15,879 nucleotides of DNA, from IMG/VR virus record IMGVR_UViG_2872158770_000005, one strand, 5' to 3'. Source of the DNA: a virus (taxonomy: Duplodnaviria; Heunggongvirae; Uroviricota; Caudoviricetes). The translations under genes and the position numbers were made by a program. Shown here piece by piece: positions 11,806-13,140 of this stretch. Numbering within the stretch: position 1 is the stretch's first letter; every line of letters starts with the position of its first letter. A model generated the notes under the pieces. It made no database searches and was not told the DNA's origin. It saw only the letters and a list, made by a program, of their open reading frames with translations.

Positions 11806-12297
11806 ATGGCTACTATCCCTGCCCTTTCTCACCCTGACGTAACCATCGAAAATGGTCGCGCTGTCACTACGTCTATTGCGATCGCAGAGTTCTTTGGCAA
11901 GCGTCACGACAATGTGTTACGTGCCATCGCAAATACTGAATGCTCACCTGAATTTAACGCCCTCAATTTTGAGGACGTCACCTACACTGACGCCAAAGGC
12001 GAAAAACGCCCGATGTACCAAATCACCAAAAACGGCTTCGTTTTCCTGGTGATGGGATTCACTGGCAAAAAAGCCGCTGCATTTAAAGAAGCCTACATTG
12101 CTGAGTTCGATCGCATGGAGGCCGAACTGCGCCAGAATAACACCCCACCCACTGACAAAATAATTCCAGGCGATGGCCGCACCCTGGTTGTTCACTTCGA
12201 CGAACGCGGCAACATCAGATTCACCGAAACCGTTCCTGATGGCGCACGGGTCTGTACCATGGAGACTTTCCGGTTGGTAATGACTCCAACTTATTGA
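11806..12297 (+). pseudogene. Rha-family phage regulatory protein (antirepressor-like), cut by IS1 copy C; last 7 codons and the stop come from IS1
   Basis: ATG 11806 with GAGGA SD; N-terminal segment AVTTSIAIAEFFGKRHDNVLRAI is typical of the Rha domain; the frame enters IS1 at 12276 and ends ...FRLVMTPTY. Confidence 0.6.
12267..12275. repeat. Target-site duplication TTTCCGGTT (left copy) of IS1 copy C
   Basis: Identical 9 bp abut both IS1 ends (12267-12275 and 13044-13052). Confidence 0.9.
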
Positions 12298-12794
12298 TAG
12301 TGTTTTATGTTCAGATAATGCCCGATGACTTTGTCATGCAGCTCCACCGATTTTGAGAACGACAGCGACTTCCGTCCCAGCCGTGCCAGGTGCTGCCTCA
12401 GATTCAGGTTATGCCGCTCAATTCGCTGCGTATATCGCTTGCTGATTACGTGCAGCTTTCCCTTCAGGCGGGATTCATACAGCGGCCAGCCATCCGTCAT
12501 CCATATCACCACGTCAAAGGGTGACAGCAGGCTCATAAGACGCCCCAGCGTCGCCATAGTGCGTTCACCGAATACGTGCGCAACAACCGTCTTCCGGAGA
12601 CTGTCATACGCGTAAAACAGCGAGCGCTGGCGCGATTTAGCCCCGACATAGCCCCACTGTTCGTCCATTTCCGCGCAGACGATGACGTCACTGCCCGGCT
12701 GTATGCGCGAGGTTACCGACTGCGGCCTGAGTTTTTTAAGTGACGTAAAATCGTGTTGAGGCCAACGCCCATAATGCGTGCAGTTGCCCGGCAT
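12291..12794 (-). CDS. insB: IS1 InsB reading frame (W57S variant)
   Basis: 167 aa; RQRSLFY here versus RQRWLFY in copies A and B. Confidence 0.9.
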
Positions 12795-12988
12795 CCAACG
12801 CCATTCATGGCCATATCAATGATTTTCTGGTGCGTACCGGGTTGAGAAGCGGTGTAAGTGAACTGCAGTTGCCATGTTTTACGGCAGTGAGAGCAGAGAT
12901 AGCGCTGATGTCCGGCAGTGCTTTTGCCGTTACGCACCACCCCGTCAGTAGCTGAACAGGAGGGACAGCTGATAGAAACAGAAGCCAC
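12713..12988 (-). CDS. insA: IS1 InsA
   Basis: 91 aa, identical to the other copies. Confidence 0.9.
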
Positions 12989-13043
12989 TGGAGCACCTCA
13001 AAAACACCATCATACACTAAATCAGTAAGTTGGCAGCATCACC

Positions 13044-13052
13044 TTTCCGGTT
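13044..13052. repeat. Target-site duplication TTTCCGGTT (right copy) of IS1 copy C
   Basis: See left copy. Confidence 0.9.
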
Positions 13053-13140
13053 TTATCTGGAAGAACAGGGATGGACTCTTGTTAACCGGGGCGCAATTAA
13101 AAATATGACTGTAGAGCAATTACTCAAAATTCATTGTTGA
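13053..13140 (+). pseudogene. 3' remnant of the Rha-like gene displaced by IS1 copy C
   Basis: After removing IS1 and one duplication copy the frame continues ...ETFR-FYLEEQGWTLVNRGAIKNMTVEQLLKIHC to a TGA at 13138-13140. Confidence 0.5.

Follow-up and report, generated by a model that had tools for sequence, protein, structure and literature searches.

An IS1-interrupted rha gene as the payload of a P1 c4/IsrK-type RNA cassette in a decayed Qin-like prophage

The founding members of the Phage_pRha family (PF09669), Rha of phages phi80 and P22 and Roi of HK022, have to our knowledge a single described phenotype, a block to phage growth when the host lacks IHF, and we know of no RNA leader reported for them. 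The closest described relatives of the locus treated here are instead two RNA-controlled regions: immI of P1/P7 (c4-icd-ant1/ant2), annotated in P1 in the order a1, b1, c4, a2, b2, icd, ant, and isrK-orf45(STnc1160)-anrP-isrJ of Gifsy-1, where an Rfam scan finds c4-a1b1, isrK, C4 and isrJ around anrP. In Gifsy-1, read-through of the IsrK terminator yields a translationally silent mRNA, IsrK in trans activates translation of that mRNA, and AnrP raises transcription of the antQ operon and induces the prophage when expressed (PMC4825925). Here we analyze a 15,879-nt stretch of Caudoviricetes DNA (IMG/VR record IMGVR_UViG_2872158770_000005; hereafter the window), in which one copy of the insertion sequence (IS) IS1, copy C, splits a Rha-family gene, rha. 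This gene is the protein payload of a cassette like those of P1 immI and Gifsy-1 isrK, ordered promoter, IsrK with its terminator, C4-type RNA, rha and dicB. We assign the locus to this known kind of switch, i.e. an anti-immunity cassette under RNA control of the P1 c4/IsrK type, whose Rha payload IS1 has probably inactivated.

The RNA leader and its Rha payload

An earlier note on this DNA, made from the letters alone, described the interrupted gene and missed its RNA leader entirely. The leader consists of a promoter-like site, an IsrK small RNA (sRNA) and a C4-type antisense RNA (Table 1). The IsrK covariance score exceeds the gathering score, and the sRNA has its own promoter-like site and a Rho-independent terminator. 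The promoter-like site, a consensus match only, is the best one between 9300 and 13700 (10/12 consensus matches) and sits at the position of PisrK in Gifsy-1. The C4-type RNA, equivalent to the STnc1160/orf45 region of Gifsy-1, has loops a' and b' that are complementary both to a1/b1 within IsrK and to a second target pair, a2/b2, ahead of rha, where it lies over the ribosome-binding site (RBS). Folding of the whole leader gives -110 kcal/mol (z = -6.6).

Table 1. Positions of features in the window (position 1 is the first letter of the stretch)
Feature	Position	Strand	Remarks
Promoter-like site	11524-11552	+	TTGAAA, 17-nt spacer, TATAGT; would start IsrK at about 11559
IsrK-type sRNA	11559-11635	+	Rfam RF01394, 61.2 bits against gathering score 50, full length
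a1 (GTGGAAA)	11584-11590	+	C4 target site inside IsrK
b1 (TTACTCGAG)	11599-11607	+	C4 target site inside IsrK
IsrK intrinsic terminator	stem 11613-11630, T-run 11629-11636	+	sequence scan
C4-type antisense RNA	11661-11748	+	Rfam RF01695 (clan CL00128), 76.7 bits against gathering score 45, model positions 1-87
b' loop (CTCGAGTGA)	11705-11713	+	within C4-type RNA
a' loop (TTTCCAC)	11720-11726	+	within C4-type RNA
a2 (GTGGAAA)	11755-11761	+	second target pair
b2 (TCACTCGAG)	11788-11796	+	second target pair
rha Shine-Dalgarno (SD), GAGGA	11794-11798	+	overlapped by b2; 7 nt before ATG 11806
rha 5' part	11806-12275	+	codons 1-156 plus 2 nt; Rha domain residues 21-105
Target-site duplication, left (TTTCCGGTT)	12267-12275		abuts IS1 copy C
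IS1 copy C	12276-13043	-	exactly 768 bp, both ends seen in the sequence
insB'	12291-12794	-	167-aa open reading frame (ORF) in IS1 copy C
insA	12713-12988	-	91-aa ORF in IS1 copy C
Target-site duplication, right (TTTCCGGTT)	13044-13052		abuts IS1 copy C
rha 3' remnant	13053-13140	+	last base of codon 157, codons 158-185, stop
dicB (cell-division inhibitor)	13151-13339	+	Pfam DicB 1.7e-36; 10 nt after rha stop
DicF-like sRNA with terminator	11264-11312	+	RF00039, 38.8 bits, below gathering score 48
Restriction endonuclease (BsuBI/PstI-type) and N6-adenine methylase	906-3817		prophage moron adjoining IS1 copy A
Replication genes	5631-7454
YdaT-family gene and Cro-like gene	after replication genes	-
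Repressor	8287-8817		HTH_3 domain only
PaaA2-ParE toxin-antitoxin pair	8837-9321		between repressor gene and early-left promoter; rexAB position of lambda
Operator-like repeats (AATAGTGATGCTATT and variants)	8268-8282, 9378-9392, 9405-9419
ydfE-like ORF and IS3-family element	13621-15879		353-aa ORF ends just before the IS; rve and HTH_Tnp_1 ORFs on - strand

The predicted structure of the C4-type RNA and its predicted target pairing are supported by compensatory changes. In related prophage loci b' takes nine different forms and a' six, and all 14 combinations that occur have targets to match: cognate a'/a2 pairing is 7/7 in all 14 specificity types, and for b'/b2 the cognate match reaches 8.5-9 of 9 (mean of non-cognate combinations, 6.4). 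The b'/b2 figures come from an anchor-free search; in many alleles the distance from b2 to the ATG is 2 nt greater, an offset that had held a fixed-column b'-b2 count to 54% pairing. Over a 15-allele alignment, pairing is 100% for a1-a' and 92% for b1-b' (both partners changed in 6/7 and 6/9 pairs, respectively), and the internal helices of C4 are 99-100% paired, with 11 pairs compensated by changes on both sides. The covariation score of 0.705 was reached by 0/500 shuffles (0.155 ± 0.027), and sliding the partners gave 0.065-0.117. P1-type antisense immunity control, with co-varying specificity types, thereby probably extends to Rha-family genes.

Removal of 12276-13052, proposed in the earlier note as a check, joins 11806-12275 to 13053-13140 and recovers a 558-nt ORF with a Rha domain, i.e. 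185 aa and a stop; the intact frame had been foreseen, at a length of roughly 186 aa. The restored protein belongs to the Rha family by PF09669 (Phage_pRha; 2e-32, residues 21-105, 112 bits against a cut-off of 29.9) and TIGR02681 (4e-36, 123 bits against 45.95). It is matched end to end by phrog_995 and has 2459 relatives at E ≤ 1e-5, of which the best 120 (79-92% identical) bear E. coli, Shigella or Salmonella names wherever they are named.

By analogy with P1 immI and Gifsy-1 isrK, most transcripts from the IsrK promoter would end at the IsrK terminator. Those that read through would carry the C4-type RNA, whose a' and b' loops would pair with a2 and b2 and cover the rha RBS, leaving Rha untranslated. 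Free IsrK would offer a1 and b1 as decoys to the same C4 loops, turning rha translation on. Judged by its context, Rha, once made, would act against prophage immunity, as an antirepressor or as an induction-promoting regulator. We give a probability of roughly 0.7 to this explanation as a whole, i.e. an IS1-truncated Rha payload of an RNA switch undergoing neutral decay; in the window IsrK and C4, which form the RNA half, are undamaged. That Rha acts by direct antirepression, an argument from analogy, we would put slightly short of even odds.

The likeness to P1/P7 immI lies in the RF01695 RNA, the order of a1/b1, C4 with a'/b' and a2/b2 over the RBS, the heteroimmune-like specificity variants, and the union of a division inhibitor and a regulatory protein in one unit. 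Unlike P1, whose payload is an ANT/KilAC antirepressor, the present cassette has a Rha-domain protein, and Phage_pRha was the only payload domain found; DicB lies downstream here whereas Icd lies upstream in P1, and there is no icd ORF between C4 and the payload, rha following directly after b2. Further, the rha SD itself is covered by b2, the promoter shows no repressor operator (there are no operator-like repeats near it), and the setting is a chromosomal lambdoid prophage. With Gifsy-1 the locus shares IsrK (RF01394), the c4-a1b1 sites and a C4-type RNA, which are arranged identically and served by a promoter and a terminator of their own. The payloads are of similar size (185 aa here, 187 aa for AnrP), and AnrP has been shown experimentally to promote prophage induction (PMC4825925). 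Unlike the present Rha, AnrP is an ORF6N protein, and the two have no significant similarity; Gifsy-1 has a separate orf45 with an ATGA overlap onto anrP, whereas here the counterpart AUG (11665) reads in frame into rha without meeting a stop; and the Gifsy-1 locus is downstream of Q, the present cassette upstream of dicB. Neither a separate orf45 with ATGA, nor an AnrP-orthologous payload, nor (by Rfam scan) isrJ was found at the present locus.

A number of points weigh against the switch as we read it. In the Gifsy-1 model IsrK opens the orf45 RBS, and relief of C4 repression plays no part (PMC4825925); the repressive role proposed for the C4 segment is taken over from P1 by analogy. P1 Ant1 (ANT/KilAC) and AnrP (ORF6N) are not homologous to Rha (BLASTP E ≥ 0.018; E = 0.097 for the restored Rha against P1 Ant1), and the same Rha subtype stands beside very different repressors, including the S24-type one of phage mEp460. 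There is no LexA box near the cassette (6 one-mismatch matches in the window against 5 expected, 0 in 11300-11800), and SOS control was rejected on this ground. The varied repressors, the S24 repressor of mEp460 and the missing LexA box together argue against a cognate, repressor-specific antirepressor. We know of no experiment or structure that ties any Rha-family protein to repressor binding, and the known phenotype of Rha and Roi is inhibited phage growth in IHF mutants, not antirepression, in line with the title of a study referenced in PMC3430580. Structure adds little: in the model of a proxy 84% identical to the restored Rha (P0025), residues 112-185 have a pLDDT (predicted local distance difference test) of only 42-54, i.e. 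the C-terminal domain is not modelled reliably, a Foldseek search of the PDB with this model gave nothing below E = 0.1, and a PDB profile search gave only a spurious globin. Lastly, about 30 of the 36 distinct leaders are traversed by a long ORF in the rha frame, and leader indels are multiples of 3 (taken up below). The term antirepressor-like, used for this gene in the earlier note, is thus apt for its position, since an IsrK/C4 leader precedes the P1 antirepressor and Gifsy-1 AnrP too, and unproven for its product, the payload families being different. The Ant protein of phi24B was considered as experimental support and rejected: it belongs to the AntA/P22 type, and in phi24B it is roi that carries the pRha domain.

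Rha might rather be a sequence-specific DNA-binding regulator of lytic development, as HK022 Roi and phi80 Rha, with the RNA switch timing its synthesis. The best PHROGs (phrog_995, 821 and 518) are all called 'transcriptional regulator' and come ahead of the weaker 'anti-repressor' families, the NCBI family name is 'phage regulatory protein', the N-terminal domain of the proxy is modelled confidently as a small alpha/beta fold, and Rha does not co-vary with the immunity type. Every characterized cassette with a C4/CI-type RNA, however, drives an anti-immunity function (P1 Ant, Gifsy-1 AnrP), N15 AntC being a further such payload, and no DNA target is known for Rha. We hold this alternative to be a tentative one, though it deserves more weight than the others considered below. 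With phi80/P22 Rha and HK022 Roi the present protein shares the N-terminal Phage_pRha domain; it differs from them in C-terminal domain and genomic position. The switch context offers a testable handle on what Rha proteins do.

The start of rha and the Ash annotation

Most of the relatives listed (the best 120 of 2459) are annotated with 282-284 aa and with two domains, PF10554 (Ash) and PF09669. The Ash match, residues 14-107 of the long form, is the translation of IsrK, its terminator and C4, and in the window the annotated N-terminal extension corresponds to 11508-11805; the Ash hidden Markov model also matches the leader in the window, but split over two frames. Codon-position diversity was examined in 47 distinct sequences. 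Throughout the 300-nt leader there is no third-position excess (0.07/0.07/0.07, 0.17/0.19/0.18 and 0.15/0.20/0.19), while from ATG 11806 on the values are 0.11/0.10/0.26, 3-periodic exactly from that ATG. The SD and b2 are placed for ATG 11806, and the start codon of the long ORF is upstream of the start of IsrK. Because the leader lacks a coding signature, we take ATG 11806 as the probable start of rha and the leader as RNA, not coding. PF10554 does not behave as a translated, selected domain, showing no codon periodicity and coinciding with IsrK and C4, and the 'Ash' family was probably defined from what is in fact a conserved RNA.

It would follow from the annotations that the real gene is the 282-284-aa Ash+Rha ORF and that the present allele has two lesions, a frameshift in the T-run at 11629-11636 and IS1. 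The length given for most listed homologues agrees with this, as do the frame left open in about 30 of 36 leaders, the indels in multiples of 3, the split Ash match, and the T-run itself, which is T8 here and T7 in close alleles. Against it, the leader has no third-position excess, unlike rha, two Rfam RNAs and a terminator occupy the stretch matched by Ash, the long ORF would begin upstream of IsrK, and the SD and b2 fit ATG 11806; we regard a long Ash+Rha gene as very improbable. The correction that is most likely called for is that 282-284-aa 'Ash/Rha' proteins are 185-aa Rha proteins behind a non-coding IsrK/C4 leader.

Two observations concern the leader frame. (i) T7 is found in the near-identical loci L008, L009, L023/L024, L004 and L006; the T8 of the window is harmless if the leader is RNA, and would be a +1 frameshift only if the long ORF were real. 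(ii) ATG 11665 corresponds by homology to the AUG of Gifsy-1 orf45 (+107), and in the window its frame continues into rha. A 45-codon ORF at 11637-11774 was considered as the orf45 homologue and rejected, since the orf45 AUG aligns with ATG 11665, in another frame.

The IS1 insertion, dicB and prophage decay

IS1 copy C is a simple, recent transposition with a 9-bp duplication into codon 157 of rha. The element has the 768 bp of IS1 and ends in GGTAATGACTCC... and ...GGCAGCATCACC, with imperfect terminal inverted repeats GGTAATGAC.../GGTGATGCT...; DDE_Tnp_IS1 (PF03400) is recorded for the same transposase ORF in L004, and RefSeq labels matching copies 'IS1A family'. The flanking duplication TTTCCGGTT is perfect over 9 bp, the usual length for IS1, and a 9-nt match at a fixed place has a chance of about 4e-6. 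Relatives have the empty site. IS-free E. coli RMDEC465 (L001) has a single TTTCCGGTT with identical flanks, and its protein differs over residues 96-185 only at residue 96; two IMG/VR contigs (L008 and L009) encode a protein 100% identical to the restored Rha, and their DNA aligns unbroken over the junction at 99.6-99.9% identity. We call the insertion recent because of this near-identity of the flanks to IS-free alleles. The splitting of a Rha-family gene, as the earlier note had it, is thus borne out by the duplication, the restored ORF and the empty-site alleles, whose single target site and gene structure are as restored; so is the survival of the original 3' end, of which the third base of codon 157, the 28 codons after it and the stop are left. 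A single base distinguishes copy C from copy B (10263-11030) and two bases distinguish it from copy A (1-753), which is partial and lies at the left edge of the window; all three have the same orientation.

The truncated rha ORF runs from ATG 11806 to a stop at 12295-12297 within IS1 and encodes 163 aa, 156 native residues and LVMTPTY, so that the last 29 residues of Rha are exchanged for 7 encoded by IS1. Among 38 homologues, 11 of the 29 lost residues are invariant and 9 nearly invariant, a conservation equal to that of the rest of the protein, and codon-position diversity of the lost tail over 44 distinct intact coding sequences is 0.084/0.030/0.255. These values indicate that the tail has been under strong purifying selection, and because of this conservation the 163-aa product is probably inactive. 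The N-terminal Rha domain is intact, as had been stated, its residues 21-105 lying upstream of the junction, and residual or dominant-negative activity is possible. Exact matches to the 163-aa product occur in three NCBI assemblies, with only Shigella sonnei names, strain 4822-66 included. In this strain (L004, GCA_000268225.1, 10486-12341) the DNA to the right of copy C is ynfF/ynfG and not the rha 3' end and dicB, which indicates a later IS1-mediated deletion of the dicB side.

The gene downstream of rha is bound up with its fate. The dicB SD overlaps the rha stop (13138-13153), and dicB follows rha at near-constant spacing in 47/85 related loci (a gap of 14-18 nt by tblastn, which places dicB some 10-13 nt past the rha stop); a literature search found no paper describing rha adjoining dicB. 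The conserved unit isrK-C4-rha-dicB echoes the pairing of division inhibitor and immunity antagonist in P1 c4-icd-ant. The RNA switch is physically linked to dicB, and IS1 copy C now lies between dicB and all upstream promoters. IS1 is classically polar in either orientation, and copy C probably also silences dicB; this silencing is at least as plausible a consequence of the insertion as the loss of Rha. One may go further and suppose that polarity, not Rha loss, is what matters, the insertion cutting dicB and the genes after it from the OL-type and IsrK promoters and so silencing a toxic division inhibitor. The close spacing and SD overlap, the rha-dicB pairing in 47/85 loci, the second IS1 (copy B) upstream in the same operon, and the outright deletion of the dicB side from copy C onward in S. 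sonnei 4822-66 are in line with this; dicB is normally repressed anyway, and the consensus scan, which found no promoter-like site on the + strand between copy C and dicB, may have overlooked an unrecognized promoter. We think it rather unlikely that polarity outweighs the loss of Rha in this way.

The earlier note had suggested that, with a repressor lacking a self-cleavage domain, loss of the antirepressor would lock the prophage in repression, a domestication step. Its premise is sound: the repressor matches HTH_3 only, with no Peptidase_S24 match even at E ≤ 1. A selected lock, in which Rha was the inducer needed by a non-cleavable repressor, is also favored by the resemblance of the cassette context to antirepressor operons and by the induction of Gifsy-1 by AnrP (PMC4825925). 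Such a lock presumes an induction to lose, and therefore a prophage that was inducible when copy C landed. The prophage is already broken, with three IS1 copies and one IS3-family element, and neither int nor xis is found in the window; the cassette is also found alongside the S24-type repressor of mEp460 and in unrelated immunity contexts; its surroundings contain no LexA box; the flank identity places the insertion after this decay context; and the severing of dicB from upstream promoters is an equally plausible consequence. The lock is thus improbable, and the proposal is not supported. IS expansion in Shigella is generally regarded as largely non-adaptive, and the 768-bp element, the 9-bp duplication, the multiple near-identical copies and the deletion in a sister strain are those of IS1 pseudogenization in Shigella genomes at large, with nothing unusual at the present locus. 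Neutral IS1 expansion is the most economical reading; copy C most likely reflects neutral decay by IS1 in a genome of Shigella sonnei type and not a selected lock, and the insertion itself is routine Shigella genome decay.

Surroundings and spread of the cassette

The window corresponds to the immunity and early region of a decayed Qin-like lambdoid prophage of Shigella sonnei type, in whose early-left (dicB) operon the isrK-C4-rha-dicB cassette lies. The operator-like repeat at 8268-8282 is between the repressor gene and cro (OR), and the other two are past the terminator that follows the PaaA2-ParE pair (OL); the latter probably mark an OL-type promoter for a ydfA...dicB operon. Downstream of them come ydfA and then IS1 copy B, a simple insertion with its own 9-bp duplication (CAACCGTTT) in the same operon as copy C, which interrupts an ORF on the minus strand, leaving a remnant at 11026-11250. 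DicF, IsrK, C4 and the 5' part of rha are thus enclosed by two IS1 copies, B and C, in direct repeat. A DicF-like sequence is found 460-490 nt upstream of rha in many related loci. A DUF1482 gene follows dicB, and the IS-free E. coli locus has the same gene order as the window.

The likeness to the dicA-ydfABC-dicF-dicB region of K-12 Qin extends to a helix-turn-helix repressor, ydfA, a DicF-like sRNA, dicB and an IS-cut ydfE-like ORF, in the same order; the ydfE-IS arrangement presumably resembles that of K-12 Qin. The present allele differs in its PaaA2-ParE module and three IS1 copies, and K-12 Qin is, we assume, without an isrK-C4-rha cassette between dicF and dicB.

The cassette (leader and 5' part of rha) has matches in 857/5426 complete E. 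coli genomes, 392 of them over ≥80% of its length, i.e. roughly one in six genomes has a match. The same Rha subtype adjoins repressors only 41-57% identical to the present one, or none detectable. In the viable phage mEp460 (L088, 6641-7792) the IsrK/C4 leader and the Rha gene are in the early-right operon, between cro/cII-like and replication genes, and its repressor is of S24 type; the cassette is thus mobile between operons as well as between immunity systems. As additions to what is known, its anatomy, its specificity types and the probable mis-annotation of 'Ash' are of use, though incremental. A far bolder proposition is that isrK-C4-rha-dicB is a widespread modular switch for anti-immunity and division arrest, with at least 14 mutually orthogonal RNA specificities in Escherichia/Shigella prophages, whose protein half is dead in S. 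sonnei and whose intact RNA half may be retained as a trans-acting regulator in cross-talk with same-type cassettes of co-resident prophages or with host targets; we give it little credence at present.

At one locus (L017, 2867-2956; also in L030) rha is preceded by sRNA-Xcc1 (RF02221, 67.4 bits) and not by IsrK/C4. There CTTAACTG lies between two sites and is complementary to CAGTTAAG upstream and at the SD, and the logic looks alike. RNA leaders of rha appear to be exchangeable modules.

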